From Chiloscyllium plagiosum (lineage: Eukaryota): 64,000 bases of DNA. The DNA lies in the NCBI RefSeq assembly GCF_004010195.1, contig NC_057718.1, positions 42,794,523 through 42,858,522 of the forward strand, given 5' to 3'. A program made the position numbers and the translations under genes. Positions 265 through 61,588 of this stretch are shown here, piece by piece (positions within the stretch are counted from its first letter, which is position 1; each line of letters starts with the position of its first letter). Under the pieces are notes generated by a model, which had not been told where the DNA came from, did no database searches, and saw nothing but the letters and a program-made list of their open reading frames with translations.

Positions 265-2095
265 GTAAATCCAAGATAGCAAGTTGCTTTCCTGGTGCCA
301 GGGTTAAGGACATCTTAAAACGGTCAAAACGCATTGTTAAAGGGGAATGTGTGAAACTGGAATTTGTTGTACACATTGCTTGGAACGATATAGTTAGGGA
401 AAGGGTTAAGGCTTTACAGAGCGAATGTAAGAGGTTAGGGAGAAGATTAAAAAGCAGGACCTCAAAAGGCAGTAATTTCTGGTTTACTCCTGGTGTCACG
501 TTCTAATGAGAGTAGCAATAAAAAGAGCAGATAAATCAATGGCGAAAGAGATGGTGCAACGTGCAAGAATTCAGAGTTCTGGATCACTGGGAACTCTTTT
601 GGGACAGAAAAGACCTGTTCGAAAGGAATAGGTTTCACCTGAACTGGAAGGGGACCATTATCCTGGCAGGGAGATTTGCTAGTTTTATTCCGGGAACCTA
701 AAAACTATTAGAGTGGTGGTGGGAAGGATCCTAAGCAGCAGTGAAAATAGGAAGGCAGCTGAGGATGGTTCTGAATCAGAAAACAGCAACTTAATTAGAA
801 ATGGCAAATAAGAACAAGTCAGAAAAACTCTGTAGAATTAAACTGTATTTATTTCAATATTATGGGGTCTTATAGGTAAGGCTAATGAACTCAGAGCATG
901 TATGGGAATATGGGACTGGGACATCATGACTATTAGAGATATTTGGCTAAGGGAAAGACAGGACGGTCTGCTTCATGTTCCAGATTTTAAATGCTAAATG
1001 AAGGGTAGAAATGGAGGCAAGAGAGAAAGGGGAGTGGTGTTTTGATAAAGGACAACATTGCTACTATAATCAGAGAGGATGTTTCTGAGGATTGTCCAGT
1101 GAAACTATATGGGTAGAAATGCGAAAAAAGCAGTACTGTCGGCTCCTCAATAGTCAGAGGGAAATTGAGGAGCAAATATGTAGAGAGATCTCAGATTCAT
1201 GTAAGAATAATAGGGTTGTAAATTATGGAATTTTAATTTTTCAAACATTACCTGGGACTCAAATAATGTTAATGGCTTGGATAGTGAGGAATTTGTTAAA
1301 TGTGTACTGGAGAAGTTTCTTTATCAATATGCAAATATACTGACTAGGGAGGGAACAAAATGTAACCTTCTGTTAGTAAATAAGGCAGGGCAAGTGACTG
1401 AAGTGTCAGTAGGGGAACACTTTGGGACGGGTGATCATAATTCTATAAGTTATTGAAAAGAATTAGCTTCCATAAAAGTTAAAATTCTTAATTGGAATAA
1501 GGCAAACTTGAATGGAATGAGACAAGAACTTCCAAAAGTTTATCGGAATAGACTATTTGCAAGTAAAGGGATGACTGAAAATGGGAAGCTTTCAAAGTGA
1601 GATAATGAGAATTCAGAGGCATTACATTACTGTTAGAGTGAATGTAAGACTGGAAAGTATAGGGAACAATGGATGAATAAAAATGTTGAGACTCTAGTCA
1701 AGAATAAAAAAGAATCATTTTTTGATATAAACAACTAGGATGAAGTGAATCTCGAGGAGTAAAAAGAATGTAAGGGCATTGTTAAGAGGGAAATCAGGTG
1801 GGCAAAAAGGGATTATAAGATAACCTGGGCAGAAAAGGTTAAGGGTAATCCAAAAAGATTCTCCAAGCACATTAGAAGCAGGAGAACAACTACAGAAAGA
1901 ATAGGTCCCTTAAAGATCAATAACATTGAATGCGTTGAACATCAGGAGACAAGAGAGATACTAAATGAATAGTTTGCATCAGTTTTTATACTGGAGAAAG
2001 AAATCGAGGCAGGAGAACTCAGGGAAATAAATATTGATGTTTTGAAAACAGTTCACATTACGAAAGAGCAAGTGCTAGAGGTCTTTGAAAACATA

Positions 2096-2308
2096 GTTAA
2101 AAATCACACAACACCAGGTTATAGTCCAACAGGTTTAATTGGAAGCACTAGCTTTTGGAGCGACGCTCCTTCATCAGGTGGTTGTGTGATCAGATGAAGG
2201 AGCGTCGCTCCAAAAGCTAGTGCTTCCAATTAAACCTGTTGGACTATAACCTGGTGTTGTGTGATTTTTAACTTTGTACACCCCAGTCCAACACCGGCAT
2301 CTCCAAAT
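2096..2308. mobile_element. Non-coding fold-back Penelope-derived mini-element (family B)
   Basis: Perfect ~81-bp inverted arms 2095-2175 and 2193-2273 plus a one-sided tail ending CATCTCCAAAT. 12-bp TSD TTTGAAAACATA at 2084-2095 and 2309-2320. Confidence 0.88.
2143..2183 (-). ncRNA. Hammerhead motif (family B) with G12 changed to A
   Basis: Minus strand reads CAC-CUGAUGA-A-GGAGC-GUC-GCUCC-AAAA-GC-UA-GUG: stem I CAC/GUG, AGCU palindrome, GAAA changed to AAAA. A mirror copy lies on + at 2191-2220 with CAGATGA. Confidence 0.6.
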
Positions 2309-2949
2309 TTTGAAAACATAAATATGGATAAATCTCTGGGACTTCATTAAGTGTATCTCAGGATATTGTGGAAAGTTAGGGAAGAAATTACAGGGCTCCT
2401 AGCAGAAATATTTGTATAAGCTATAACCATGGGTGAGGTGCCGGAGGATAGGATAAGTTCTTGGAAGTGATTCTGAAAGATTTGGAGAGGCAAAAACTGA
2501 TGAAGGATAGTCAGTATGGTTTTGTGCAAGAGTAATCCTGTCTCACAAACTTGATTGAGTTTTTGAGAAAGTAACCAAAATGATTGTTGAGACCAGAGCG
2601 GGAGACATTATTTACTTGGATTTTAGTAAAGCCTTTGACAAGGTTCTGCAAACTCAATCAAGTTTGTGAGACAGGATTACTCTTGCACAAAACCATACTG
2701 ACTATCCTTCATCAGTTTTTGCCTCTCCAAATCTTTCAGAATCACTTCCAAGAACTTATCCTATCCTCCGGCACCTCACCCATGGTTATAGCTTATACAA
2801 ATATTTCTGCTAGGAGCCCTGTAATTTCTTCCCTAACTTTCCACAATATCCTGAGATACACTTAATGAAGTCCCAGAGATTTATCCATATTTATGTTTTC
2901 AAAATTTGGAGATGCCGGTGTTGGACTGGGTGTACAAAGGTAAAAATCA
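2262..2949. repeat. 300-bp near-perfect inverted repeat (2262-2562 and 2650-2949)
   Basis: Reverse-complement match with only one substitution and one 1-bp indel seen; 87-bp spacer. The duplicated ORF-track peptides (2347-2529 minus and 2584-2865 plus) reflect it. Confidence 0.95.
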
Positions 2950-3095
2950 GTAAAGTTAGATCACATGGGATTCAGGATGAGCTTCCCAATTGGATGTAAA
3001 ATTGGCTTAATGGTAGGAGGTAGAGGGCAGTAGTGGAGGGTGATTTTTCAGACCTGTGACCAGTGGTGTTCCACAGGGATTGGTACAGAGTCCTT

Positions 3096-14751: not shown

Positions 14752-14951
14752 ATGATTTGGAGATGCCGGTGTTGGACTGGGATGTACAAAGTTAAAAATC
14801 ATAGGTTATAGTCCAACTGGTTTAATTGGAAGCACACTAGCTTTTGGAGCACTGCTCCTTCATCCCCTTGATGAAGGAGTGGCTCTTCACAAGCTAGTGT
14901 GCTGCCAATTAAATCTTTTGGACTATAACCTGGTGTTGTGTGATTTTTAAT
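14752..14951. mobile_element. Fold-back Penelope-derived mini-element (family B), older copy
   Basis: Same sequence as 2096-2308 in the opposite orientation, with diverged arms and two decayed hammerhead motifs (about 14837-14864 minus, 14869-14897 plus). 9-bp TSD TCTGGGGTT at 14743-14751 and 14952-14960. Confidence 0.85.
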
Positions 14952-16270: not shown

Positions 16271-18756
16271 CTCAGAAATATTTAATTTTTCTGTATGAAA
16301 TAGGAAAATGTTCAAATCACCCCATTAACTCACACACACATCCCTTGCATATGTCCCTTTCTATGTTGTGCAGAATGCAACATACTGCCATTATTCTACA
16401 GAGGTTACCCCTCAGCGCACATAGAATTAACAAGTTTGACGTTCCTATCCAACTCAGCAAATTAAATCACAGAATATACTGCATTTAATTTTCATTCCCA
16501 TGTTTCACCCATATACACCCTCGAGTGACTTAAGCACAAAGAAACTTGACAATTTGACTTGAGCTGTGACCAGCTGATAGAATCAGAGAAAGGCAGCCTA
16601 CCACACATTCGCTGGTTCTGTCCTTCAACTGGCTCCATATACTCTAATTCATTTTTCCTACTCCCTTTAATATTCATCTTCTTCAAATACATATACAATC
16701 CCTTTTCAATTCATACAATACTTTCTCTCCAATACCCATTTGTGGCAACATTTTTTTTGCTGAAAATGTAGACACTAAAAATTGCTGAATTCCATCTCCC
16801 CCACCATCGTTCTTCTCCTTAGTCTACTACCCCTGAATACTGAGTCACACAATTTAGCACTTTTTACCATTTCAAAACCTTCCGTAATTCTTAAACCTTT
16901 GTTAGATTTCACTCTGAAGCTGTTCTAATCTGGTGTAGAAGGTAAGTTATCAAGCCATTCTTTAAGAATAGAATTTCTCATTTCAGGTATTCTTCAAATG
17001 AAACTTTGCTGTATCCTCTCCATTGTTTCAGCGTATTTCCTATAATAGGGTGCCCAAAGCAGCAAGGAGGCAATCAGACTCTGAAATGACCAATATTTTG
17101 CTCCTTCCTTTACATCCAATGACTCAAAGTTACTTTTGTCTTTCATATAACATTTCTAATCTATGGATCTCTTGTACAGAACTCCCTCTTCTTGGATCAT
17201 TAAGACTTTTAAAATTTAATCTAATTAGCAACTTTGTCAAATATAAGCCACTCAATTATTTGTACTAATTTGCTATGCAATATCGCTATATATTTTCTTA
17301 ACTGAACAGTCTTCCTCATAATTTGTTTTTGCCTATTAATTTATTAGAATCAGTAATCTGGGTATCATTTGTCCTTTATTTGCAAAGGCCAGCAGCAGTC
17401 TGGAAGATTGGGAGACTTTTAGAGATCAAAGTTCCCAAAAATGTATTATAAAGAACAAAAATAAATAATGAAAGAAAACTAGCACAAAATATTAAAAATG
17501 TATAGTAAAAGCACCCATAAGTATGTAAAAGTAACGAGAATAGCTGAAGGGAATGTTGGCTCTTGGAGGATGAGACTAGGAAATAATAGTGGAGACATTA
17601 AATCAATATTTTTAACAGTGGGAGACAGTAGTACCATCCCAGTATAAACAGGTGATGTAGAGGTTTTAGAAAGAGAGGAATTTACATCAATCATCATTAC
17701 TAGGGAAGAAGTAGTGAACAAGCTATTGGGATTGAAGGCAGACAAGTCCACAGGGTCGGATGGCCTATTTCCTAGAGTCTGAAAAGATGTGGCAACATAG
17801 ATGGTAGATCCATTGGTTATAATGTACCAAAATATTCTTGATACGGGATAAGTATGTGGATTGCTAAATAACTGATGTAATGTACTTATTCCAAAAGGGA
17901 GGAGGGCAGAAAGTAGGAAACTACAGAGCAGCTAGTTTAATCTGTCATTGGGAAATTTTTGGAATTCATTATTAGGTAAATAATAGCAGGACATTTGGAA
18001 ATTCAAAGTGCAATCCATCAGTAAGCCCATTTTTATGAAGGATAAATCACGTTGTTAGAGTGCTTGAAGATGTAACAAATAAAATGGATAATTGGGATCC
18101 AGTAGATGGAGTATATCTAGATCTCCAGAAAGCACTTGATAAGGTGCCACAAAAAAGTTAATATGTAAGATAAGACCAAATGGGGTTAGGGTTAATTTAT
18201 TAGTTTGGACAGGCAATTAACTAACCAACACAAAGTAGAGAGTAGGGATAAATGGGTCTTTTTCTTGTTGGCAAGGCTCAACTATTCAGAAAAGTTATAC
18301 AAGGATGTTGCCAGGGTTGTAGAGTTTGAGCTGGTGGGATAAGCTAAATAGGCTGGGGCTATTTTCCCAGGAGTGTCAGAGCTGATGGTGACCTTGATAT
18401 GGTTTATAAAATCATGAGGGGCATGGGTAGAGTAAATAGACAAGGTCCTTTCCCTGGAGTTGGGGAATCCAAATCGAGAGTGCATTGGCTTAGGGTGAGA
18501 GGGCTAAGTTTTAAAAGGGACCTAAGGTGCAACTTTTTCACGCAAATGGGTGGTGCATGTATGGAATGAGCTGCCAGATAAAATAGTGGAGGCTGATACA
18601 ATTACAACATTTAAAAGGTAACTGGATGGGTATATGAATAGGAAGGATTAGAGGAACATGGGCCAAGGGGGATTAGATTAGCGAGTTTTGAGAAGATTTA
18701 TAGCTCAGGTTGAGGTTCTGAATGTAGGTTTGCTCGCTGAGCTGGGAGGTTCATTT

Positions 18757-18796
18757 CCAGATGTTTTATCACCCTAATAGGTAACATCTTCAGTGG
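18757..18796 (-). ncRNA. Decayed hammerhead motif in the Penelope terminal repeat (family C)
   Basis: CCA-CUGAAGA-U-GUUACCU-AUU-AGGGUGAU-AAAA-CA-UC-UGG; stem I CCA/UGG; CpG-type changes from GAC-GAAA-CG-UC. Confidence 0.6.
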
Positions 18797-18919
18797 GCCT
18801 CAGGTGAAGCAGTGTACATGATTCCTGCTTTCTATTTATATGTTTGGATTTCTTTGGGTTGGTGATGTTATTTCCTGTGGTGATGTCATTTCCTGTTCTT
18901 TTTCTTAGGGGATGATAGA

Positions 18920-19637
18920 TGGGGTCTAACTCGATGTGTTTGTTGATAGAGTTCTGGTTAGAATACCAATGCTTCTAGGAATTCTCATGTGTTCTCTGTT
19001 TGGCTTGTCCTAAGATGTATTGTGTTGTCCCAGTCAAAGTGATGTCCTTCCTTATCTGTATGTAAGGATACTAGTGAGAGAGGGTCATGTCGTTTTGTGG
19101 CTAGTTGGTGGTCATGTATCCTGGTGGCTAGTTTTCTGCCTGTTTGTCCAACGTAGTTTTCGTTACAGTTCTTGCACGGTATTTTGTAAATGACATTAGT
19201 TTTGCTTGTTGCCTGTATAGGGTCTTTCAGGTTCATTAGCTGCTGTTTTAGTGTGTTGGTGGGTTTGTGGGCTACCACAATGCCAAAGGGTCTGAGTAGT
19301 CTGACAGTCATTTTGAAGATGTCTTTGATGTAGGGGAGAGTGGCTAGGGTTTCTGGACGTGTTTGTCTGCTTGTTTGGGTTTGTTGCTGAGAAATCGGCG
19401 GACTGTGTTCACTGGGTACCCATTCTTTTTGAATACACAGTATAGGTGATTTTCCTCTGCTCTGCATAGTTCCTCTGTGCTGCAGTGTGTGTTGGTTTGT
19501 TGAAATAATGTTCTGATGCAGCTTTGTTTTTGGACGTTGAGATGATTGCTTTTGTAGTTCAATATTTGGTCTGTACGTGTTGTTTTCCTGTAGACACTGG
19601 TTTGAAATTGCCCCCTTGACTGTCCGCTCTACTGTGA
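18920..19637 (-). pseudogene. Penelope-like RT C-terminal region and GIY-YIG endonuclease, frameshifted
   Basis: NYKSNH...SCIRTLF...FKKNGYP (ORF 19344-19562), then LPYIKD...NVIYKIPCKNCNENYVGQTGRKLATRIHDH...HHFDWDNT (ORF 18985-19716). Confidence 0.92.
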
Positions 19638-19759
19638 CTATCACCCCCTGAGAAAAAGAACGGGAAATGACATCATCACAGGAAATGACATCACCAACCC
19701 AAAGAAACCCAAACATATAAATAGAAAGCAGGAATCATGTACACTGCTTTGCCTGTGTC

Positions 19760-19799
19760 CCACTGAAGATATAACCTAGTAGGGCGACAAAACATCTGG
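19760..19799 (+). ncRNA. Decayed hammerhead motif in the inverted Penelope terminal repeat (family C)
   Basis: CCA-CUGAAGA-UAUAACCUAGUAGGGCGAC-AAAA-CA-UC-UGG. Confidence 0.55.
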
Positions 19800-20964
19800 A
19801 AATGAACCTCTCAGCTCAGCGAGCAAACCTACATCCAGGGATTAGATTAGGTTAGGATTATCTGGTCAGCATGGACAAGTTGGACCAAAGGGTCTGTTTT
19901 GGTGCTGTACATCTCTGTGACTCTACTTGGTGCCACAGGGTTCAGTTCTCATGTCGCAACTATTTATAATCTATGTTAAGGACTTTGATGCAGGGATAGA
20001 AGGTACTCTAACCACATTTGCAGATAACATTAAATTAAGTTGGAAAGTAAGTTGGAATAAAGAAAGAAGAAATGTAGACGTGGATATGAATAGGGGAAAG
20101 TTTGGCAGAGGGAGTTTAATATGGATAAGTGTGAGGTTATCCATTTTGATTGTAAGAATAGAAAGACAACTTTTTATCTAAATGGAGAAAAACTTTAGAA
20201 TACGTTGGTGTCGAAGATATGGGTATCCTTCTGCATGAATCACAGAAGACTAGTCCATAGGTGCAGCAGGTAATAAGGAGTGCAAATGGAATGTTGACAT
20301 TGATTGAAAAAGGAATACAGTATAAGGGTAGAGAAGTGTTGCTGCAGCTGAATAAGGCATTTGTGAGACTGCATCTGGAGTATTGGGTATAACTTTGTCT
20401 TTTATGCTTGAGGAGGGATGTAGTTGCACTGAATGCAGTCAGAGGAGTTTTACTAAATTGATTCCAGAGATGAGAGTTTGTCTTATGAAGAGAGATTGAG
20501 GAGTTAGGTCTTTATTCTCTCAAGTTTTGAAGAATGAGAGGAGATTTATTGGGGGTATATAAGAGGTAGATGTGGAGAAGAAGCTTCTTCTTGTGGGTAG
20601 CCTGGGCACAGAGGTCACAGTTTTAGAATAAGGATAGCAGATTTAAAACGGAAAGGAGGAGAAATTGATTTTCTGAAAGGATTGTGCATCCATGGAATTT
20701 ATTGACCTCAGAGTGTAAGTAAATTTAAGAAGCAATAGACTGATAGTTAGTAATGCGTCTAAGGGTTATGGAGACCGAACAGGAAAATGGAGTTGAGGCT
20801 AAAATTAAGTCAAACATAATCATATTGAATGGTGGAGTAGGCTCGAGAGATTGAATTGGATACTTCTGCCCCTATTTGTTACGTTATGTTGTAATATTAT
20901 AAGTACACAAATTTTAAGAAGTTCAGGGCACACCAATTTAAGTCCCCTTGCCATTTCTAATAAG

Positions 20965-24427: not shown

Positions 24428-25172
24428 GGAGAAACTGAGGACTGCAGATGCTGAAGATCAGAGTCAAAGGGTTTGGTGCAGGAAAAGCACATCAGGTCAG
24501 GCAGCATCTGAGGAGCAGGAGAATCGACATTTCGAGCACAAGCTCTTCATCAGAAAAGAGGGGGTGGCCCAAGGGGGCAGAGAGATAGATGGGAGTGGGG
24601 TGGGACTGGGGAGTGAAGGCAGCTGGGAATGTGATAGGTAGACAAAGGTGAAGGTGATGGTGATAGGTTGGAGAGGAGGGTGGAGTGGATAGGTGGGAAG
24701 GAAGATGGACTATTATGACAGTTCAAGAATGCAGTGCCGGGCTGGAAGGTTGCATCTGGGATAAGGTTGGGGTGGGGGAGGCGAAACGGGGAAACTGGTG
24801 AATTCCATATTACTCAGGATCGAGGTGGATTTCACCATCGATGCCGAGTAATGTGAATTTCACCAGTTTCCTCATTTCCCCTCCCCCCACCTTAACCCAG
24901 ATCCAACCTTCCAACTTGGCACCGTCCTCTTGAACTGCCCATCTTCCTTCCCATCTATCCGCTCCACCCTCCTCTTCAACATATCACCTTCACCCCTACC
25001 TTCATCTACCTATTGCATTCCCTGCTACCTTCCCCCACCCTCCTCCCATCTATCTCTCAGCCACGTTGAGCCACCCCTCATTCCTGATAAAGAGCCTATG
25101 TTCGAAACATCAACTCTCCTACTCCTCGGATGCTACCTGACCTGTTGTGCTTTTCCAGCACCACACTCTTCA
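24428..25172. mobile_element. Large fold-back Penelope-derived element (family A) with two opposing hammerhead motifs
   Basis: Imperfect inverted arms about 24455-24815 (G-rich) and 24845-25172 (C-rich). Ribozyme motifs at 24521-24556 (minus) and 25084-25112 (plus, CTGATAA and GAAACATC, decayed). Confidence 0.82.
24521..24556 (-). ncRNA. Minimal hammerhead motif, core nearly intact
   Basis: CUGAUGA-A-GAGC-UUGU-GCUC-GAAA-UG-UC-GAUUC. Stem II is GAGC/GCUC against GGGC/GCCC in other copies, a compensatory pair change. Confidence 0.68.
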
Positions 25173-27177
25173 ATACCTTTGCCACTGCCCAGGGAGCTCC
25201 TATGTTTCCATAGTGGATGTAGTTGACAGATCAGATGTGTTCTTGAGATTCCGCAATGTGGCCTCCCCAGATCTCAAGGGAATCTCCAGCATCCAGCCCA
25301 ATCCTGTACCCTTGTGTCCATTGCTGATATCTGCTGTGGCCAATTGACTGATTCTAACCAGAACTGGTACGATGCCATAGTATTTATAAGCCAATTTTCA
25401 CTGATGACTTAAGATGCTCATTAGTGATGTGGAGATTTCAGTTCAGTGATCTCCTGTGATAATCCTATTGCTTCAAAACAATAATGTCTATGACGTGGGT
25501 GACTATAAATTGATTGTTGAGAAAAATGTAACCCTTTGTATGCTGGTCCTACCAGTCTGAAATTGTATACATTAGAAAATTCAGCTCAGATAATACAGGG
25601 AAACTGATTGCTGTGATAGATTTAAATTGATCCAAGAAATGGTGTATTAAGTTAGTGATGTGTGCTAAAAGTTGTATTAGTATACAATGTCAAGACGTTT
25701 AATATGCTTAGAGTGCTGTATGAGAATGAAGAATGATATATGGGAAGAAAGAAAGTTACATGGGGTTAAAGAGAGGTGTGTGGGATAGGCTATGGTTTAT
25801 GAAGTTATAGAGGAGTGTATAGATTTAGATAACAATTTATAGTATGAAAGAAACATGCATGGGGTGAAAGGGGGCTATATAATATTACAGAAAGATTTAT
25901 GGAGTAATCACAGTTTATGGGTTAAGTGTTTTGTTTTAATTAAGAAATCAAGACAAGATGCCAAGACACCACCAAGGTTGAAAAGAGTAAAGAGAAGATA
26001 AGCAAATTGAGAAATGGTGATTCTGTGCTGGAAGGCTTAGTTTTAAAATCCTTAAATATTGACAACAATGAGAATTTTTGACTAATTCAAAAGAATGATT
26101 CAAATTGATCAGGGTGTAGTGAGAAAGAAACAGATTTAATATGCATATTTGGAGCTAAGATTAGATAAGAGTGAATTAGTACTGGACATGGATGTATGAA
26201 TGAAATAGAGATAAACATACCAAATGGCCAACATAGTTTAGAAGATCTGAAAGTGAGAGGGGAAATCATGTATGGATATGGTCATTTTTATTATAATACA
26301 TGAAAAGGTAGAGTTAGGAAAGCCCTACCAATTAAGAACAATATTTAAACTGGACAGTTGTGATCTTTGCAAAGAGTTCAGAACTGCAGGCAGAGGAAGT
26401 GTTTGCCACAATACGATAATTGAGCATATTGGAGGTAGTTTTATGAAGACAGTAAATTAAACAACTAGAGATAAGAAATATTAGTAGTTGACCTGACTTG
26501 TGAGGGGCATGAACACTGTTCTGTGAATGAGAAAAGAAACAAATTCATTGAGACAATGAAGGGTGCAGAGAAGAAGTAGAGATTCTGATATTGTAAAGTA
26601 AGAGGAAAAGAGCTTGTGAGAACTAACAGTGCTGGAATTTAAAACTGATTAATGCAGAGTGGAATTACTGGTAGATGAGATTGGATGATGAATAGAATAA
26701 GTCATAGATGTGGGGAGATATGGAATCACAGAATGGTGTATGAGATAATGAGGGATGTGTGGAGTTAGTAGGTGATATATTATGAGTTAACAATCAGTGT
26801 TAAGAAAGATTGATAAATAAGTACAATACATTGGAATGAAAATAGAATTACATTAACATAGCATACAGCAGGCCTGAAAACAGTAAGATTTAAATGGAAT
26901 TAATCTGATTTTTAGGAAAATATAAATAAATTAAGGAGTTGATTTTCCTAATGAATGCAACAATACAATAAAAATTTGACAGAAGCCACATATTATGAGA
27001 TGAGTCAAAATTTGATCTACTTATGATTAAGTTGAAATTTATGAATTAACTCAATGTTTCTGAAAATCTTTCAAAATAACAATCTACAAATAGAAGCTCA
27101 TGTGCAGCTTGTATACTTATAGCTTTCCAAAACATGAAATCTGTGACATTAAAGATGGCAACAGGTATCAATATATT

Positions 27178-27445
27178 TAGAGTAGATTACCTACAGGCTC
27201 TTCAACCCATCAAGTCCACACGACCCTCCAAAGAGTAACCCACCCAGACCCAATTCCCCTCTGGCTAATGCTGCTCACACCACAGGCAATTCACCTGCCT
27301 GGCACATCTTTGGACTATGGGAGGAAACCCATGCAGACACGGGGAGAATGTGCAAACTTCACACAGTGACCCAAGGCTGGAATTGAACCTGGGACCCCGG
27401 TGCTGTGAGGCAGCAATGCTAACCACTGAGCCACCATGCCAACCC
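27178..27445 (-). mobile_element. HE1-type SINE
   Basis: Reverse strand of GGCATGGTGGCTCAGTGGTTAGCATTGCTGCCTCACAGCACC...GGTTCAATTCC, with V-SINE-like core and CR1-like tail. Confidence 0.88.
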
Positions 27446-27449
27446 TATT

Positions 27450-27610
27450 GTCAATAGATATGCAGCTGGAAAAGCACAGCAGGTCAGAAAGTATCTGAGG
27501 AAATGGAATATCAACATTTTGGACTCAAATGCTATCTGACGTTTTGTGCTCTTCCAGCTTCACATCTATTGACTCTGACTTCCAGCATTTGCAGTCCTTA
27601 ATGTCTCCTA
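27450..27610. mobile_element. Short fold-back family A element with the centre deleted
   Basis: CAATAGAT...GCTGGAAAAGCACA pairs with TGTGCTCTTCCAGC...ATCTATTG; tail CCAGCATTTGCAGTCCT. Confidence 0.7.
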
Positions 27611-27959
27611 GATATGGAGACATTTCTAGTAAAAGCTGATTTGGGAAATTAATATGTATTAATTTCAACAAACCTGATATATTGTCAAATGGAAAAAATT
27701 AGAGATAGGAACTGACCATATTGCATCAATTTTACAAACATGAAGTGGGCACAATTTAGCTATATATTGAGAAGTAAAATCCCAATACCCTAAGGACACC
27801 AGAAAATGTTCAATCTGAATCTTGACCATTCTTTAGCTATGCCTAAAGCCAGCTAGCTTTAACAGCAGTTAGATTACTTACATTGTAAATGAGCAATGTA
27901 TAGAGACAGTAGTCACATCTGCCAAGCACAGGATTCTTCAACGCCCAATATGGCCAAAG

Positions 27960-28048
27960 TCAGAAGTCACACAACACCAGGTCATAGTCCAACTAGTTTA
28001 TTTGAAATCACAAGCTTTCGGAGCGCTGCTCTTTCATCAGGTAAAGTC
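27960..28048 (-). mobile_element. Family B monomer with hammerhead motif at 28010-28043
   Basis: Minus strand AC-CUGAUGA-A-AGAGC-AGC-GCUCC-GAAA-GC-UU-GU; GAAA is intact, AAGCUU palindrome; flank matches 2101-2140. Confidence 0.72.
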
Positions 28049-29309: not shown

Positions 29310-30475
29310 CTGACTTACTCACTCACTCTCACTCCTTTGAATTATTTCACTCAGTTAATCAATCACTCAACTCATTTACTTAATCAATCAATGTTTAATT
29401 CACCCAAGTAATCACACATTCATCCCATTAATCACAATTCACTCAATTAGTGATTCATTCACAACTAATCACACATTCACTCAAGAAATAACTTCATTAA
29501 GCTTTCATCAATATCTTAACTAATTCACTCAATGGTCACTCATTTACACAATCAAGTATTCACACATTGTTTATGTTAATCACGGTCAGCATGTCACTTA
29601 AATACTCACTCAAACACTGGAGTGAATATTATGGAGGTGATGGTATTGGGAACCTGTTGGTAGGAACTTCCCACTCACAAAGAGCTACTGGGCTATTCAG
29701 AGGCAGACAGTTTGCTTGGTCAACTGCACCACCAGTGAAGCTGTGGTTGCTGTTGGAACAATACTTACCAAACACTCAGGATCACAATGTGACTAGGCCA
29801 GATATAGGTGATAATGGGAGGGGTTATTTTTAGAGACAGGGGATCAGCAGCAAGGACAAATGAGTGACTGTTAAGAACTTCCCACAGCCTTTCCCAATGT
29901 TGGGACCGAATGTCTTCAAATGAGAGACCACACCAATCTCCCAAACCAATTTCTTCTAGTATCACAAACAACCAAACACATTTACTTATTGTGTTCCTGC
30001 ATGGTGACAGGCTCATTGCTGCTGTATTAAACCCAATGGCAGTGGCAAAAAGCACTTAATTGGGCATCAATCATCTCTTAAGGGTCTCAATTGGTGGTAG
30101 GAGAGGAAGGCCTCGGGGCCTTTCTATCATTAAACTTGCCTCACTTCCTCCAAACTCATGATGGGAATGCATAAAATACCAGCTACTCATATACTCATTC
30201 AATCACTCACTCAACTAATGTCTCATTCACTCAATTAATCACTCAATTAATCATTCATTCACTCAATCACTCTTTCACTCAATTAGTCACTGTTTTACTC
30301 AATTCATCCAATGTCTAATTCTCTCAATCTCTTCTCATTCAAGTAATAAATCATCCATCACTCATTCAACCAATCACTCATTCACAAAATCAATCACTTA
30401 ATTGTTCATCCACTCAATTACTAATTTATTCAATTAATTACTCAATGCTAAATTAACTGCCCATTCATTCAAACA
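29310..30475. repeat. Degenerate (CACT/TCAA/CATT)n low-complexity tract split by a MITE-like insertion
   Basis: G-poor tracts at 29310-29612 and 30185-30475. The insert (about 29618-30183) has imperfect inverted ends GAATATTATG / CATAAAATAC. Confidence 0.7.
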
Positions 30476-33094: not shown

Positions 33095-33293
33095 TAGAAA
33101 GTGAGGACTACAGATGCTGGAGAGTCAGAGTCGAAAACTATGACACTGGAAAAACCCTTCATCATGAAAAGTCTATGCCCAAAACGTCGACTCTCCGGCT
33201 CCTTGGATGATGCCAGACCTGCTCAAAATACATGCATAGATAATTGTATGCTATTGTTGCAGTGCTTTTTCCAGCACCACACTTTGTGACTCT
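33095..33293. mobile_element. Decayed fold-back family A element
   Basis: AAAGTGAGGACTACAGATGCTGGAG head; decayed ribozyme ATGAAAAGTCTATGCCCAAAACGTCG; TTTTCCAGCACCACACT. Confidence 0.7.
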
Positions 33294-36200
33294 ATGACTC
33301 ATACAAATAGGCTGTCCACTGTGGGTTACAGAGAGATTTAGTTCAATTGCTTTTTTGCTACCTTGGTCAAGGAATAATGGCTGGTGCTGGGAAAGATCTT
33401 AAATTGAACACAAATATGAATCCATCAGAAGACTAACATATCTGGTAGACCACTCTTCCTAGTAAAGTTAAGATTGATGCTGTACCAGTAACACTACACT
33501 TTACTAAAGCAGCCACATTTTCCATTAGATAATGCTGCTCTAAAAAATCAAATCTTATAGGCATTACTCAAACCAGTTGCAATCAGTTATATAAGCACAC
33601 TAGGAGGAAAATTGAATGTGGGGTCAATATGATCATTTTTCTGTTCTCTTGTGCATTAATCCAAACTTCCTTCATTTTTGATGATGACAACTGTCACTGC
33701 AGAGAAGGAAAAAATCAACTAGCTGACTGTAAAATATTTGGCTGCGACCAGTAGGTATGTAATTGGATAACTGCTGTGGTAACACTGCTTTCAGTTACCA
33801 TCAATGGCAAAATCCCCCAGAAGATATTAATTGGACTAGATTTAAAACAAAATTAAAAATTAAATCTGTATAGATCAATGTAAAGGCATTGTATGATGCC
33901 CTGACACTATAATTTGGATTGAACTTTCACTGATTAATTATTATAAGAGTTTGCACTGCAACAATAGCATACAATTATCTATGCATGTATTTTGAGAATG
34001 CAAAAACTAAACCTGTAAACACCTACAAACTAGTAGCCTTTTGAAATTTCCTGTTTCATAAAGATAACGGAAATGTCAGAAATCATTACATAAGTTCAGC
34101 AGTGGTGCCTTGTATTTTTGTTATATGTCAGAACCATCAGATTGCAATTCCCTTCCCTGTTGAGACTGACAAAGGTGGAAAGGAGTACATTAAAGTGTAT
34201 TTATCCACATTGAAATCTGTTCTAATCAGTCTTAAGGTATCAATTTCAATTGAATAAATGTGAAAGATACTTTAAGAAAATGGATAGAGAATAGTGAATC
34301 TAATAGAATTCCATTATATTTTACACTGAAGAGTTCTGTAGCATTATTATTAAAAGGCAGTACTCCTTCTTGCACTTTCCAAGTGCTTGTGAAAATTTAA
34401 CCCAGCTGCAAGTAATAAACAGTTCTCTATTTAATGCATCCCACTTATAGGATTTACTGGCTTCAGCAAAAGTTAGCAGAATTCCGTTATGATGTTTTGT
34501 GCAAATTGCTTATTTCTGAAATGACTACTATGCTTTTAAAGGAAGATGATAACCTAATTTTAATTTTTTGTAAATAGTTAATAGAGTTCCATTCAGCAGT
34601 CAGTTATTTGCCCAAATTCTCCTTCGTGTTTGTGCAAGTATTTCAAGTTGTTTTAATATGCAGCTGTGGATGGAATTAACCTTAGTTTGTAAAGCATGCA
34701 CAAAAATGACTTATATATTCCTATATAATCACAGGACCTCTTTTTCTAGCAAGAAACACTAGCTAAGATGCCTAAGGCCAGAATCAGTTTTAAATAATTT
34801 CCACAACTATGCAGTGTATTTGAAATGTTACACACAGGGACGAATCTCCAATGCAGAAACTTGCTGTAGTTTATTCGTGCAATATTTGTTTTACCTTAGA
34901 ATTCACATTTAAGCAAGATTAAAATAAATTCTGCTCTGGCTGAAATACTCTTCTGTCAGTCAGTTAAAACTTTTGTTTAATCCTGGAGTATAAAGCAAGT
35001 TGAAAGCATTTCAGTTTTATCTGGAATATTGGGGCTACAGCCTCAAGACATTGATCTGGTTTTGACTGGCAACTTGCCTCCGCAAATGGAGGAAGCAGAT
35101 TGCCTCTTGCCTGCATGCTCCGAAGAGGTACTGATTTAATAACAGTGGACAAGCGGCTGGGAGCTGGGCTGTCAGCCTGTCACAGGCTGACAAATCTGTT
35201 GTTCATATGCAGGCAGGGTGCACTGATAGACTGCCATCATTGGCATCCAACCACTGCAGGCACGCAAACGTTAGCAAGCTCTCCAGCACTCAGCAATACT
35301 CCTCTCATCTTTGTTTCCTTTGAGAGCATCAGAGAAAAAAAAGACATCAACCCACATCTCAAGAGGGTCACTTATCAATGATGGAGATATTGAGTTGGAA
35401 TTGTCAGTCACTGCTGAATCTTCCATTAAGTGCTGAAGTGATCAAAAAATAAACCAGTAAGTTATTAAAGAAACGATATAAACAAAGACAGTGTTTTGCA
35501 AGTGTCAAAAATGAAACCCACATAGCTTTGTCATAACCTTGATATTTATGGTAAGGATAAACACTTAATCAAATAACTTGATAAAATCATGATGTATATT
35601 TGCAATATTATGGTTATTTGTCTGTAAATGGTTGTCAAAACCGTTGTGTTAATCAGAAAGTATGAATGTTATTACCAATAGAAATGAAATGTGAAATAAG
35701 GTCTATAAACATACTTATCCTCCATTTCCTGTTACATTTATTATTTGGCATCCTGTTCCAGCTGGAAACGAAGTAAGACAGTGTGTATCATAGACTTTTG
35801 CCTTATTGCTAGAAATGAAACAAAGCAGCACTTAAATAAGTTGGATGGACACTTTATGTCCATATGGTACTCTATCTGGAATCTGGGCCAAGAAATGCAA
35901 AAGTCACCTACTTAGGGCAAGTGAGTTCAAATACCATATAGTCCCGAGGCTTAAACTCTCAACCTTCTGTTTCAGAATCAAGCATTGACCCATTTCAGCT
36001 GGTAGGTCACATTACCAACAAGTACATTTGATTAACATATGTGCAGAATTGGACAACAACTATCCATAGGGATTCCTTATTTAGGCACAGGTAGGTATTT
36101 ATCAATTTTTTTGATATTTAGATTGAAGTTTCAAAAATGATATCAGTTGACTTTTAATCATTTTATTTTGAAGATGCTCAGACATTACATATTCATTGTT

Positions 36201-42829: not shown

Positions 42830-43150
42830 GACATCTCCCTTGAAAACCACCACTTTGAATGTCTAGATGAACAAGGACAGAAACCACCATCAGCAATCTT
42901 CCCTCCTAGTCATACACCATTATGATCTGGAAATATATCATCATCCCTGGGTCAAAAGCCTGAAATACCATACTGAGCAGCACTATGGGTGTATCTTCAT
43001 CACTAACTGCAGTGGTTTAAGAAAGTGATTCATCACCAACACCTCAAGGGCAAACCCAGATGAGAAATAGTGAGTGTGGCGACACCGGAAACCTAGGCGA
43101 AACCTAGCTGCTTTTGCTAATGAGACCCGTATCTCATGAATGAATTAAAA
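42830..43150 (+). mobile_element. LINE 3' end (family of 3600-5270)
   Basis: GGAAATATATC...CTGGGTCAAAAGCCTG...CTGCAGTGGTTTAAGAA...CATGAATGAAT. Confidence 0.65.
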
Positions 43151-43734: not shown

Positions 43735-44395
43735 GCATGGGTGTCACGACTGGGGCCAGCATTTATTGCCCATTGTGAAGCCTCTTTGAGGAGATGATGT
43801 GAACTGTCTTCTTAAACTTTCCGGTGTCGCCACACTCACTATTGCTGTTAGCATGGGACTCCCAGGAGTTTCACCTATTGTCAGCGAATACGTGGTGATA
43901 AAGTTCCAAGTCAGAAAGGTATGTGATTTAAAAAGGAGCGTTCAAAGTGGTGGTGCACCACTCCTCTGCTCCCTTCTAGGTGGAAGAGATTACAATTTTG
44001 GAAAGTACTGTTGTAGGGGACTTGATGTTTATTTGCAGTGCATTTTATAGATGGTACAGTCTGCTGCCATGTGTATCGGAGAGACTGAATGGTAACGATG
44101 GAAGGTGGGATGATAATCAGGACGTTGCATGGTCTTGAATGGTATCGATCCTTTTGACTGTTGTTGGAGCTGCACTCATACAGGCAAGGATAGTATACCT
44201 TTATACTCCTGAGTCATGCCTTGTAAATAGTGGTTTCATTACCACCATTATTGAGACTAGAATTTAATTCCAAATATCCTCATTGAATTTTAGTTTTCAA
44301 TAATAGCCTGGTGAGATTTGAGCTTCTGTCCCCATAACATTAGTGAAGGTCTTTGGGTTGCTAGGCCAGTGACATTGCCACTATACCACCAACAA
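43735..44395 (-). mobile_element. LINE 3' region (related family), reverse orientation
   Basis: GGCCAGCATTTATTGCCCA...GTGAACTGTCTTCTTAAAC...GTTGTTGGAGCTGCACTCAT. Confidence 0.7.
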
Positions 44396-49699: not shown

Positions 49700-50053
49700 G
49701 GGCAGCATGTGGCAGAGTGGTTAGCACTACTGTCTCACAGCACCATGGATCCAGGTTTGAATCCAGCTTTGTGTGACTGTGTGGAGTTTGCATGTTGTCC
49801 CTGTGTCTGCATGTATTTCCACCAGGTACTCCAGTTTTCTCCCACAGTCAAAGATATGCAGGTTAGATGGATTGGTCATGCTAAATTTCTCCATAGTGTC
49901 ACAGAGATGTGCAGGCTAGATGGATAAGGTGTTAGAAATGCAGGGTTATAGGGAAAAGGGTAGGGAGCTGGGTTTGGGTGGGATGCTCTTTGGAGAATCA
50001 ATGCACAGTAGATGGGCTGAATGGCTCTTTTTGCACTGTAAGAATTCTATGAT
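49700..50053 (+). mobile_element. HE1-type SINE, near full length
   Basis: GGGCAGCATGTGGCAGAGTGGTTAGCACT (A box), GGTTTGAATCC (B box), CTGTGTGGAGTTTGCA core, CR1-like tail GCACTGTAAGAATTCTATGAT. Confidence 0.88.
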
Positions 50054-51319: not shown

Positions 51320-52239
51320 TTCAGTGAGAGGCTATAGTGTGACCAAGAGAATTCATGAGTTCTTGCATGAGCAGCGCGTAAGACCAAAGACAGAAAAGCC
51401 AAGGTGGAAATGAGGTGTGGTGGAGGGTTAGGGGATAGGCGTTGAATAGCATGGTTTGAAGGCATGAGCCACAGGACAGTGAAGTGAGGAGAACATTTGT
51501 GGACAGAACAAATTTTAACATAGAAACTTTTGAATAGTTTCCCTGATCTAGAATTAACAGGACTATAAGAAGTGAGGACTAGTGTTTTGCAAAGAGATCA
51601 TCTTAAAGCTAATCTGTGCATTTCTACAAAGGCGTTCTCCTGGACATATGCCTCAAGGCTACAGGCTCCACAAATACATAGACTATGCTTCTTCCTCTTC
51701 ATGCTCCCACAAACGTTTAATACAATGCAACCAATTTTTCCGTCTTTGCCTGAAAAAAATGCATTTTCTACACTCTTCTTCAGTCTAGATAGTTCTTTGA
51801 TTCTATTTTATCAAGGTCCATAAGCATATCTAGATACCATTCTGCTCTCACCTTCTCCATCTAAATGATCCATTTAGAAATGACAAGGCCTCCCCCACCC
51901 TGTTTTCATCTTCCATCCCCACTAGCCTCCAGATGATCTGTGATTTCTATTAGCTTTAAGATCTCTTGACAAAACACTGGTCTTCATTTCTTATAGTCCT
52001 GTTAATTCTAGATCAGGGGAACTATTCAAAAATGTCTATGTTAAAATTTGTTTCATCAACAAATGTTCTTCTTACCTCACTGTCCTGTGGCTCATACCTT
52101 CAAACCATGCTACTCATCCCTCATCCCTCGACCTTCCACCACACCTCATTTCCACCTCGGCTTTTCTGTCTTTGGTCTTATGCGCTGTTCATGCAAGAAC
52201 TCATGAATTCTCTTGGTCACACTATAACCTCTGACTGAA
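51320..52239. repeat. ~290-bp diverged inverted repeat (51320-51613 and 51949-52239)
   Basis: Reverse-complement match with scattered mismatches; near-identical ORF-track peptides at 51321-51521 minus and 51966-52238 plus. Confidence 0.92.
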
Positions 52240-52444: not shown

Positions 52445-53235
52445 GGTAACTAGTATGCTGGCCTTCACAGTTAGAGGATCCAAGTACAGAAGCAGCGATG
52501 TCTTGTTGCAAGTACAGAGGGCATTGACGAGACCAGACATGGAATATTGAGTGCGGTTTTGATCTCCCTATCTAAAGAAAGATGTTCTTGCTATAGAAGT
52601 GAAGATTTACTAGACTGATTCCTGGGATTGTATGATTGATGTATGGGGAGAGGTTGAATCAATTTAGGATTTTATTTGCTAAAGTTCAGAAGAGTGAGGG
52701 GTGGTATCTCATAGACAGGGCCAATTGCTGGAAGAAGGTTTTGATGATGTAGAGACCAGAACCAGAGGTCACAGTTTAAGGATACAGGGCACACCATTTA
52801 GGACTGAGATGAGGAACTATTGCTTTACTCAGAGTGGTGAGTCAGCCAAGCAGTCAAGGCCAATATATTAACTGTAACAATTGTGGATGCTGTAAATCAG
52901 AAACAACTGAAGTTGCTGGAAACCTCAGCAGGCCAGGCAGCATCTGTGCAGAAAAGTCAGAGTTAACATTTCAGGTCCAGTGCCCCTTCCTCAGAATCTT
53001 CACAGATGCTGCCAGATCTGCGGAGCTTTTCCAGAAACTTCTGTTTTTGTTTATGAAGGCCAAAATATTGTATGCTTTCAAGAAGGAATTGGATATAGCA
53101 TGTGAGAGTCAAGGGATCAATGGATTTGGGGGAAAGGTAGGAACAGCTTTTGATATGGATGATCATAATAAATGGCAGGGCAGGCTTCAAGGGCCAAATG
53201 ACCTATTGCTTACTCATATTTTCTCTGGTTCTATG
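52445..53235 (+). mobile_element. Decayed CR1 3' region with nested fold-back element
   Basis: GAGACCAGACATGGAATATTG, AGAACCAGAGGTCACAGTTTAAGGATA, and 3' UTR GGGCCAAATGACCTA. Confidence 0.8.
52870..53055. mobile_element. Fold-back family A-related mini-element with hammerhead motif at 52960-52996 (minus)
   Basis: 14-bp TSD AAGGCCAA(T/A)ATATT at 52856-52869 and 53056-53069. Minus strand UU-CUGAGGA-A-GGGGC-ACUG-GACCU-GAAA-UG-UU-AA. Confidence 0.78.
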
Positions 53236-53820: not shown

Positions 53821-54037
53821 ATTTGAGAGTGTGGTGCTGGAAAAGCACACCAGGTCACGCAGCATCCAAGAAGCAGGAGAATCGACGTTTCAGGCAAAAC
53901 TTACCAGAATTCTGATGAAGGGCTTTTGCCTGAAACGTCAATTCTCCTGCTCCTCAGATGCTGCCCAACCTGCTGTGCTTTTCCATTACCACACTCTCGA
54001 CTCTAATCTCCAGCATTTGTAGTCCTCACTTTCACCC
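53821..54037. mobile_element. Fold-back family A mini-element
   Basis: 13-bp TSD TCTAAATTTATTG at 53808-53820 and 54038-54050; arms about 53825-53899 and 53924-53998. Confidence 0.88.
53906..53945 (+). ncRNA. Minimal type-I hammerhead ribozyme, best-formed copy
   Basis: Stem I AGAAUU/AAUUCU (6 bp), CUGAUGA (53912-53918), A, stem II GGGC-UUUU-GCCU, GAAA, CG, UC; predicted cut after C53939. Confidence 0.78.
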
Positions 54038-54883: not shown

Positions 54884-55224
54884 TAGATTCCCTACAGTGT
54901 GGAAACAGACCTTTTGGCCCAACAAGTCCACACCAACCCTCCAAAGAGTATCCCACCCAGACCCATTCCCCCTACCCTATAGTTACTCCTGACTAAAAGG
55001 CCTAACTTACACATCCTGAACACTATGGGCAACTTAGCATCGCCAAATCACGTAATCTGCACATCTTTGGATTGTGGAAAGAAACCGGAGCACCTTGAGG
55101 GAACCCACATAGACACATGGAGAATGTGCAAACTCCACACAGACAGTGTCCCGAGGCTGGAATCAAACCCAGGTCCCTGGCACTGTGAGGCGGTAGTATT
55201 AACCACTGAGCCACTGTGCCGCCC
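54884..55224 (-). mobile_element. HE1-type SINE, full length
   Basis: Reverse strand of GGGCGGCACAGTGGCTCAGTGGTTAATACT...GGTTTGATTCC...; tail CCACACTGTAGGGAATCTA. Confidence 0.9.
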
Positions 55225-55364
55225 CATTGTACTCTACTCCTTTGCCTTCATTCTCCTCATTAATGTGGTTCACAGGTTTGAACACAATGGCCTGGATTTT
55301 CATAGAGACAGCAGACTCTGTGGCAGGTGAAAGAGTGTCACATTGTGAGCCTGACTGACTATGA

Positions 55365-57899: not shown

Positions 57900-58800
57900 A
57901 GTTATTCAGCATCAGATGGTTTCTCTGATAGCTATCTTTCAAGAAATTCTCCATTGACACAGATCATTAGGCCTTAGAGATAATATGCCACTAGCCGCTA
58001 ATGAGTACACCAGCACATTTCCGGCATTGTCTTGTCAAGGTGCAAGGATGTGACATTGAAGTGGCACAAGCTAGGTGCCAGGATAGTTATTAAAATAAAA
58101 TGATGAATTACAGATGCCGATGATCTGAACAAAAACAGGAATTGCTGGAGAAACTCAGTAGGTTCTGCAGCATCTGTGGAGAGAAAACAGACTCAGTGTT
58201 GATCTGGGTAACCCTTATTCAGTCCTGATAAAATTTCAAATACACTGCTAAATTTCCAACCCAAAGACGACACAAAGTCTAAGATATTCCTGTTGATCTA
58301 TATGTTGATGCTCTGGACTATGACACTAAACGTGTCCACTAGGTAGATCTGTCACTCTTTGGCCAGCGTCAGTGAGAACAATTGTGATGGTCTGACAGCA
58401 ATAAACAAAATCTGAGAAGAGTCATTCACTTTGGCCATACAGAGATGCATTTGACATACGCACAACATGTCATTTTCAAGAAAAAAGAAGCCCTAATCTC
58501 AAAAGCATTCCACCAAGGAATCATGTCTATGTTACACCAAGTCGATTGAACACACAGGATGGCTACCATGTGAACCAGGGCCCAGGCCAAGGATGAAACA
58601 GGATATTCAACAATTTGTGAATGCATGTGAGGCATACCAAATGCAGCAACCCAGCAATGGAGGGAGCTTCTACACTCATTCAATGTCCCATCCATTCCTT
58701 TGACAAAATTAGCAACAGATCTTTTTATCGTGCATGGTCGAGGATACTTTTAAGACACCATTATGTCAGCATGTCTTTAAGAGACATTCACAATATTATC
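57900..58800 (+). mobile_element. Decayed Gypsy RNase H/integrase remnant with a nested family A-related fragment (about 58095-58225)
   Basis: TDH*ALEII (RNase H); IMSMLHQ...PRMKQDIQQFVNACEAYQ (HHCC-like); VPSIPLTKLATDLF (integrase core start). Confidence 0.7.
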
Positions 58801-60500: not shown

Positions 60501-61588
60501 AGTTATTGTTAATTAATTCATGAATGTATGTAAATGATCATGTTTGGACTAAGATACATTCTTCTTGCCTGGTCATGCTCACATAAGAACATAGGAGGGT
60601 CATTAGCCCTCAAGCCTGATCTATCAATTCAATGAGTTCATATGATCTGTGACCTTTGGCTAATGAAGTTAGTAATCACAGATTTATTTGTGAAATAGAT
60701 TTCTAATCTTTCAACACCCTTTGCATGTCGAAGTGAACAATCTGCCTCTAAACTTTAGACAAAGCCATTTAGGCCTGGACTCCTCAGCCAGTAAAAATAG
60801 TATCTCTCTATCCATCCTTTCAAGTCCACTTAATGCCTTGAAAGTTTTGATTGAATCACTCATTAATTTTCTACATTCCAGGGAATACAACACTACTAGG
60901 TGTAATCTATCTTCATAACTTAACCCTTGGAGACAAGGTATCATTCTGGTAAATCTACACTGCACTACTTCAAAGGTCACCATATCGTTCCGATGGTACT
61001 GTGCCCAGAGCTGCTCACAGTACTCCAGGTGGGCTCTAACCAGGGATTTGTAGATCTGTAGCATAACATCTATCCCCTTGTGGTGCTTGTATTAATTAAT
61101 ATTGATAAAGGTCAAGAATTTGCAATTTTGGCAGAAACGGTGTTGTCCTGACCCAGTGAAGGGGCCACCTGCAGTTTGACTGATGTTACTTATGTGTTCT
61201 GGAATGACTTATACAGATGTGGAGAGAAGATTTTTTATGCTGTATGTACAATGATTTTCTATTAATAACCCTATCCCTGATAAAAATGTGTGCAGATCAT
61301 TAGATAGGAAATGACAATAGTCTGTACAGCAGATCATATGGAGTTGAGGCATCAAAGATAATACTGGCCTTGGATAAAAACAGAAAATGTTGAAACACTC
61401 AGCAGGTCATACAGCATCTGTGAAAAGAGAAACAGGTAACATTTAGGCTGATGATCTTGTATATGTGCTGATATGTCCTGATGTGGATTCTAAGGTGGTG
61501 GCTAGTTATTGTTAATTAATTCAGGAATGTATGTAAATGATCATGTTTGGAGTAAGATACGTTCTTCTTACCTTGTCATGCCCACATA
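60501..61588. repeat. 85-bp direct repeat pair (60501-60585 and 61504-61588)
   Basis: AGTTATTGTTAATTAATTCA...CACATA twice; 6 mismatches counted, no indels. Confidence 0.93.
60582..61080 (-). mobile_element. 5'-truncated CR1 3' end
   Basis: ORF 60711-61064 (YKSLVRAHLEYCEQLWAQ...RFTRMIP); tail CATAAGAACATAGG. Confidence 0.9.

Follow-up and report, generated by a model that had tools for sequence, protein, structure and literature searches.

Insertions of endonuclease-bearing Penelope-like elements (PLEs) are described as carrying an inverted, 5'-truncated copy set head to head, a tail of 30-40 bp at one end, target-site duplications (TSDs) of about 10 bp (8-10 bp) and inverted repeats of copy-dependent size (Arkhipova et al. 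2013, PMC3846280; Craig et al. 2021, PMC8557442), and the layout of inverted pLTR plus tail is also found in Schostak et al. 2008 (PMC2377424). Minimal type I hammerheads with a short stem I, an extra base before stem II and a loopless palindromic stem III were described in PLE terminal repeats, and opposite-strand pairs of them, 100-700 bp apart, were ascribed to truncated PLEs (PMC4209133). For the purified protein of one PLE, Poseidon of Anolis carolinensis (PAc; Frangieh et al. 2024, PMC11167929), the reported properties are cutting and extension of both strands at AT-rich DNA, two internal starts of reverse transcription that bracket an AC-rich tail, and activity with dead hammerheads.

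The palindrome at 2096-2308 of the window (the whole stretch of 64,000 nucleotides from Chiloscyllium plagiosum analysed here) follows the published PLE layout: a 36-nt tail stands on one end only, with two types of 3' end in the family, the inverted copy is 5'-truncated and of variable length, and the short TSD lies at an AT-rich site (12 of 12 bases identical and 9 of 12 A/T; no empty site was seen). Unlike the published insertions, it consists of only two stubs, of 91 and 116 nt, without an ORF and with arms still identical. By its sequence the palindrome appears to be two 5'-truncated copies of a PLE terminal repeat placed head to head, one of them tailed. The best explanation is that an endonuclease-bearing PLE produced the element in one insertion event, young and without coding capacity, and we consider it very probable that 2096-2308 is a young inert PLE stub of which the centre was made at this insertion.

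The layout as such is already published for PLEs, and the locus is a neat example of a known pattern. The literature searched, in which subscription papers including several early PLE ones are poorly covered, gave no title that deals with PLE twin priming or with palindromic PLEs of sharks, which is no proof of novelty. As a dead stub of a described kind the locus itself carries little weight, but the class of stubs is a large natural record of an unsolved PLE step, the making of the inverted copy and the tail, and the arm lengths, tail side and subfamily markers across young copies can separate twin priming from fold-back self-priming.

Layout of the palindrome and its relatives in the window

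The arms of the palindrome form, as the original prediction stated, a perfect inverted repeat of 81 bp (2095-2175 against 2193-2273, fully complementary); base 2095 is the final base of the TSD, so that 80 bp of the arm pairing lie within the element of 213 bases. Perfect inverted repeats in 10 shuffled windows reached at most 11-12 bp as against 81 bp here, and the RNA fold of the palindrome gave z = -23.9. The 17-nt loop of the original prediction has the right size (2176-2192) but is not a separate loop, since 2176-2186 continues the left arm with 11 nt of upstream family sequence without counterpart in the tail arm, which leaves just 2187-2192 as filler. The one-sided tail and the exact 12-bp TSD were both recovered as predicted, and so was the lack of coding capacity, the longest ATG-started ORF inside being 10 codons; with its tail the right stub extends over 116 nt (Table 1). 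At position 2086 both TSD copies carry T, where other LINE records often have A. The right junction (2287-2388) was matched in run X2, which may be the assembly's own sample, and none of the contigs listed spanned either the loop or the left junction. MITEs have terminal inverted repeats flush with both TSD copies; identification of the palindrome as a MITE was rejected, since the tail separates the right arm from the TSD. Pfam gave nothing informative for 7 fragments of flank plus element. Rfam gave 0 matches in the window at the gathering threshold; the best sub-threshold matches were generic hairpin models, none of them a hammerhead, and the sub-threshold miRNA and sRNA matches reflect the hairpin alone.

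Table 1. Coordinates of the palindrome, its parts and related features in the window.
Feature	Position	Strand	Remarks
Left TSD	2084-2095		12 bp; identical to 2309-2320
Tail-less inverted copy of PLE terminal repeat	2096-2186	-	91 nt; family contigs align 2095/2097-2186 in three runs
Junction filler	2187-2192		6 nt
Direct copy of terminal repeat	2193-2272	+	truncated inside hammerhead core
PLE tail	2273-2308	+	36 nt; A+C 67%; single arm only
Right TSD	2309-2320		12 bp; X2 contig covers 2287-2388 with 0 differences
Minimal type I hammerhead motif	2146-2180	-	3-bp stem I; CUGAUGA intact; extra A; 5-bp stem II; palindromic 4-nt stem III
Broken hammerhead motif	2191-2222	+	2 mismatches to core pattern
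Poly(A) hexamer	2229-2234	+	ATTAAA here, AATAAA in about half of family depth; mirror 2134-2139, - strand
Older sibling palindrome	14752-14948	-	tail on left; different subfamily (2-nt insertion in both arms)
Tail-less monomer, more distant subfamily	27955-28042	-	ambiguous 6-bp TSD
In-window control, unrelated PLE of like layout	18678-19838	-	201-bp arms; 36-nt tail on one arm; 13-bp TSD
Second stub family, copies	125-263, 24428-25177, 27450-27607, 33097-33292, 52880-53052, 53825-54036, 58128-58182, 61376-61422		
Old frame-broken host LINE	1089-3090	+	ends approximate; short broken frames
Local inverted duplicate of 2262-2562	2650-2949	-	281 bp identical; two errors in last 20 nt; LINE resumes at 2950
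Local inverted copies (template)	33222-33265 (33953-33996), 43063-43091 (43818-43846), 51320-51613 (51949-52239)		

Penelope origin, which the original prediction had put forward, is supported by the combination of inverted truncated copy, one-sided tail and TSD, and by the like layout of the control element at 18678-19838, of which the inverted arms carry hammerhead motifs and enclose a piece of GIY-YIG ORF (18985-19734, - strand; Pfam E = 0.0012, 19.6 bits, under the cut-off of 22.6). For the palindrome itself the assignment to PLEs is made from the terminal repeat, because the ORF of its family was not found: no RT or endonuclease ORF linked to this family was detected in the window, where tblastn matched only the 18-19 kb element. 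Both predicted relatives exist. The sibling palindrome is 81% identical, in reversed orientation, with 11 of 12 TSD bases matching; its arms are 81-84% alike, its centre is its own and different, and its tail arm has an 8-nt gap that is absent from its other arm. The monomer (83-85% identity) retains an intact hammerhead core with the first pair of stem II mismatched. In addition, the layout recurs in a second family at 24428-25177, 53825-54036 (with a short palindrome as its centre) and 52880-53052, with TSDs of 9-14 bp; this hammerhead-bearing stub family is abundant in the window, and its copies are often palindromic with a one-sided tail.

Junctions, outer ends and the proposed route of insertion

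Four of the 24 runs listed were used, three DNA contig sets and the RNA run X21. The contigs of the DNA runs (organism A for X1 and X2, organism B for X12) and the reads of X21 were aligned to 1750-2690 at 88% likeness, the DNA runs giving 67,181, 97,279 and 75,168 aligned contigs, mostly on the element; X2 and X12 exceeded the counters, depth does not equal copy number, and the joint sides comprised only 21-30 nt. In all three runs contig ends accumulate at two places: 2274-2277, where the family sequence continues without a break, and 2308, where the end of the reference copy accounts for part of the pile-up. The family thus has two types of outer end about 36 nt apart, one with and one without the tail. 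Among the 15 joints listed of 1,047, 13 link left arm to right arm, all at different positions. The depth at the loop base 2192 relative to 2204 was 0.05%, 0.6% and 0.1% in the three runs, less than 1% of the family depth, and therefore this centre is not a common family feature. The arm-arm junction was most likely made at the insertion. Comparison of junctions between copies, as proposed together with the original prediction, favours its alternative of truncated insertions, given the two outer-end types, the variable junctions and the rare loop; the other alternative, a self-propagating family carrying this loop, found no support in the depth at 2192 or in the sibling, of which the centre indeed differs, as had been remarked for the two loops.

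Some junctions recur, since three joints were seen in all three runs, and several joints have a depth of 50-430, and one of 2,355, as against 4-20 for most single-locus contigs listed; amplified sub-lineages are therefore possible. This recurrence bears on the proposal of a non-autonomous palindromic family, in which the whole hairpin would be transcribed and re-inserted as a unit by PLE proteins acting in trans. It is in favour of such a family that the depths of the joint from 2182 to 2262 (2,355 in X1, the deepest) and of that from 2124 to 2225 (in all three runs) are worth many single copies, that a 3-nt insertion variant behind 2192 reaches a depth of 331 in 5 contigs of X2, and that PLE terminal repeats can mobilise cargo in trans (PMC3846280). 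We nevertheless hold it unlikely, because the present centre amounts to at most 0.05-0.6% of the family depth, the sibling differs in both centre and subfamily, the recurrent junctions, which carry 2-5 nt of microhomology or sit on a snap-back site, can arise repeatedly, and an 80-bp stem is predicted to block folding and processing. A related speculation, to which we give a low but real chance, is that some fold-back junctions have been copied whole, ribozyme-dead palindromic PLE stubs being re-mobilised in trans with the present copy as a singleton or a founder. If true, such stubs would be the retro-transposed counterpart of MITEs, the recurrent junctions of high depth and the tail-to-tail joint described below would be their traces, and perfect palindromes would, while young, give rise to inverted duplications next to them, of which 2650-2949 would be an example.

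A tail-to-tail joint from 2275 to 2308, on opposite strands and with a side of 50 nt, was observed in 20 contigs of X2 and in none of X1 and X12; palindromes in tandem, an element inserted into a copy of itself and an effect of the library are candidate causes. Neither viral nor metagenome contigs contained an exact match to a 23-nt family pattern, and 10 viral-contig matches of a 16-nt pattern were dropped as chance hits with only 16-22 bases matching.

For the preferred reading, a stub with its centre made at insertion, we propose the following route. The target was duplicated over 12 bp, and PLE copies have, as observed in the family, two types of outer end, with and without the tail. Both 3' overhangs of a 12-nt staggered cut would then prime reverse transcription on element RNA, followed by head-to-head end-joining, a step that we favour by a modest margin over even chances. 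Initiation at the tail-distal start would give the right arm of 116 nt and initiation at the tail-proximal start the left arm of 91 nt, and both cDNAs would halt near the 5' edge of the hammerhead, with the 6-nt filler left at the join. The polarity fits this twin priming because both outer ends are 3' ends of the element. At the left primer end 4 of 5 bases pair with the RNA at the tail-less start. Since the tail-less arm holds 11 nt that are missing from the tail arm, it was not copied from the tail arm as it stands. The behaviour of PAc is alike in the two starts bracketing an AC-rich tail, the AT-rich targets, the cutting and extension of both strands and the dispensable hammerhead cleavage, but PAc belongs to a different family and the main text of that report leaves head-to-head products unexplained (PMC11167929); the twin-priming reading is ours and should be taken as such.

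Fold-back self-priming shares the PLE origin and competes only with the twin-priming step. Here the cDNA would fold near the hammerhead and extend into a hairpin, of which the centre is later trimmed, and the palindromes seen at inverted junctions led Arkhipova et al. 2013 (PMC3846280) to infer self-priming of this kind. Identical arms, G12 included, are naturally expected from it. Four of the 13 arm-arm joints (2180-2182 to 2260-2264), including the deepest, coincide with the pairing predicted for snap-back, a short palindrome forms the centre of 53825-54036, and snap-back accounts for 4 of the 6 filler bases. In the DNA fold of 2096-2192 these 4 of 6 filler bases are paired (z -3.0, 2 of 200 shuffles), as compared with z -1.3 and 22 of 200 shuffles without the filler; the first 4 nt of the filler could faintly hint at the product expected in this model from snap-back extension of the left cDNA. 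However, the tail-less arm is the longer one at the 5' end, which requires an extra later deletion, likewise in 6 of 7 loci of an unrelated family (see below), and the 8-nt gap in the tail arm of the sibling is absent from its other arm. Fold-back is thus a possible but clearly less probable origin of the present centre, and both twin priming and fold-back may operate.

The unrelated family came from a motif pattern search of metagenome contigs, with an intact motif required on one arm, which yielded 63 stretches, none similar in sequence to the palindrome element. Junctions were scored for 30 of the 63, all from one family, and several of the other 33 resemble chance matches in bacterial genes. 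Of the 30 records 11 have an inverted arm; once two pairs of records had been merged these came to 9 loci, no two of which share a junction pair, although individual ends are used more than once (+28 in two and -11 in three cases). In all 7 loci with both outer ends visible the tail occurs on one arm and not on the other, and in 6 of these 7 scorable loci it sits on the arm that is shorter at its 5' end. Eighteen of the 30 records, three of which look like one locus, start 7-17 nt upstream of the core, near the 9 nt of the palindrome; this clustering may mark an RNA 5' end or a stop of reverse transcription. Many unrelated animal PLE-type repeats with a hammerhead-then-AATAAA layout were observed among the stretches L011-L073 (e.g. 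L021 1322-1367, L029 1-1145 and L028 1-1375). In L029, from a further unrelated family, a GIY-YIG ORF (E 4e-07) precedes the motif layout by about 410 nt, and in L028 the motif is head to head with an RT ORF (RVT_1, E 1.7e-11), while Pfam gave nothing informative for 3 of the 5 metagenome ORFs.

Hammerhead motifs, poly(A) site and family RNA

Of the hammerhead motif that the original prediction placed on each strand, the layout is present on both, but the motif is damaged on both. On the - strand A replaces G12 at 2156 while CUGAUGA and stem I are kept; on the + strand A stands for G12 (2212) and for U4 (2192), and the 5' strand of stem I is missing. The combination expected of an active ribozyme, stems I and II plus an intact core of CUGAUGA and GAAA, is thus absent from both strands of this copy, and the complete motif is found in 0 of 5 family arms within the window; at the family level a minimal hammerhead does lie in the terminal repeat. 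Lunse et al. are said to have described the dimer cleavage of hammerheads. Compared with the minimal hammerheads of PMC4209133, the motifs agree in the short stem I, the extra base before stem II and the loopless palindromic stem III, but G12 is lost from both copies, U4 and stem I are lost from one, and only some 15 nt separate the two motifs. In the hammerhead, G12 acts as the general base (PMC6155905).

G at 2212, the mirror of 2156, accounts for 61-65% of the family DNA depth, and G12 was retained in 1,144 of 1,446 + first-mate RNA reads (79%). The G12 change stands in mirror image on both arms, with five other CpGs of the element unaltered, which suggests a ribozyme-dead template; later homogenisation would look alike. 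In the proposed route the template had probably already undergone the G12 change, so that a ribozyme-dead RNA would have been mobilised. That a young copy shows the loss of G12 in mirror image agrees with the in vitro finding of a dispensable hammerhead cleavage.

RNA was analysed from run X21, a single 3'-end single-cell poly(A) library, of which 12,955,460 records (about 2% of the run) were read; 2,839 reads aligned, 90 of them at 99% likeness or above, and 99% continued into other sequence. RNA reads cross the predicted cleavage site, cleaved products being invisible in such a library. Loose poly-T ends were found at 2119 (675 reads) and 2122 (520 reads), by symmetry 2249 and 2246, i.e. 12-15 nt past the hexamer and ahead of a GU/U-rich tract (about 2253-2269), at the level of the family and not of this locus. 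That the loose ends fall into three classes (571, 343 and 179 reads) suggests a small number of source loci, with read copies of one molecule as another possibility. Polyadenylation thus makes use of a site within the family repeat, 23-60 nt upstream of both outer ends. An RNA ending at this site lacks the template for either outer end, which would fit internal initiation in vivo, so far shown for one purified element (PMC11167929). In palindromic copies the poly(A) region 2229-2269 and its mirror 2099-2139 provide one site per strand, probably masked by pairing.

The original prediction also envisaged a long dsRNA hairpin from either strand, as a possible siRNA or ADAR substrate, and a likeness to ambisense retrozyme RNAs. 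The hairpin is physically possible, but X21, one 3'-end single-cell run of low power, gave no support for it. The predicted energy of the hairpin through both arms is -161.7 kcal/mol as against -7.8 kcal/mol for hammerhead stems I and II, and in a read-through RNA both motifs would, by this prediction, be sequestered in the 80-bp stem. As the last step of the proposed route the insertion would thus be inert, any transcript through both arms pairing its own hammerhead and poly(A) signal into that stem. The reading of the locus as a functional ambisense ribozyme or as a gene for hairpin RNA, be it retrozyme-like, a source of siRNA or a substrate of ADAR, could appeal to this very stable predicted hairpin, to the presence and polyadenylation of family RNA, and to the small RNAs reported for PLEs in rotifer and Drosophila. 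We regard it as highly improbable: both hammerhead cores are broken, the motifs are opposed and not tandem, the Rfam gathering score is not reached, 99% of the aligned RNA reads continue into other sequence, and the flank bins hold a depth of 0-12 that comes from other LINE copies. Within the low power of X21 no locus-specific transcript was detected (almost no flank coverage), and the proposed check for A-to-I editing gave no A>G excess (A>G/T>C site counts of 36/35 as against 30-34/28-31 in DNA). With broken cores, opposed motifs and a hairpin that outweighs the hammerhead stems, the analogy to ambisense ribozymes and retrozymes fails. Non-LTR retrozymes, as described by Li et al. (bioRxiv 10.64898/2026.07.22.740005), consist of directly repeated tandem units and carry two or more complete type I hammerheads; the palindrome is alike in being non-coding, PLE-derived and of the type I hammerhead class, but it is a single inverted pair without a complete motif, and identification as a retrozyme was rejected.

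The neighbouring inverted duplication and other repeats

The palindrome is inserted in an old LINE, which we take to be CR1-like from an RT-type motif at 2559-2648, without confirmation by Pfam; no other copies of this LINE segment were found within the window. A longer perfect inverted repeat of 281 bp (2282-2562 against 2650-2930), which includes the tail and the right TSD, had been missed in the original prediction. The duplicate at 2650-2949 contains 12 nt of the palindrome arm, the tail, the TSD and 242 nt of LINE, and it is younger than the insertion because it contains tail and TSD. Its origin as a retrotransposed 3' transduction was rejected, there being no TSD and no poly(A), and similar local inverted copies being present elsewhere. 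The contig evidence for the duplicate is mixed (depths 13, 8.2 and 8.1, with one contig departing from the reference at 2521), and an assembly effect behind it is possible.

These observations bear on a secondary origin of the perfect arms, in which local template switching, or else assembly and polishing, would have homogenised an insertion of greater age. Such an origin gains from the adjoining of two perfect inverted repeats, of 81 and 281 bp, from the CpG-type change mirrored in both arms, and from a 199-nt X2 contig that matches 2388-2521 and then continues for 65 nt off the reference, at a depth of 8.2 that is not twice the 8.1 of the spacer contig, though 2287-2388 has 13. It appears improbable, since the TSD is identical at 12 of 12 bases and, among the 40 rows listed (282 others), no element position differs from more than about 80% of the DNA family depth, whereas the flanking LINE differs at many positions from more than 90% of it; the duplicate moreover carries errors at its junction and is followed by continued LINE sequence, a pattern shared with three further local inverted copies in the window.

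Those three further copies lie 335-726 bp from their templates. The 44-bp copy at 33222-33265 is 100% identical, lies inside a PLE stub and shows microhomologies of 2 and 4 nt. The association between fold-back stubs and local inverted duplications was not significant (2 of 4 events, rough P = 0.09). At the return point of the duplicate 2650-2949 the LINE sequence resembles the end of the palindrome arm.

Other repeats in the window include a degenerate low-complexity array of short TCAC/TCAT-type units at 29345-30438, a dispersed and presumably SINE-like repeat at 27320-27445, 49709-49852 and 55067-55225 (about 75-80% alike), and an 85-bp direct repeat at 60501-60585 and 61504-61588, 93% alike, of which the two copies are 1,003 bp apart.
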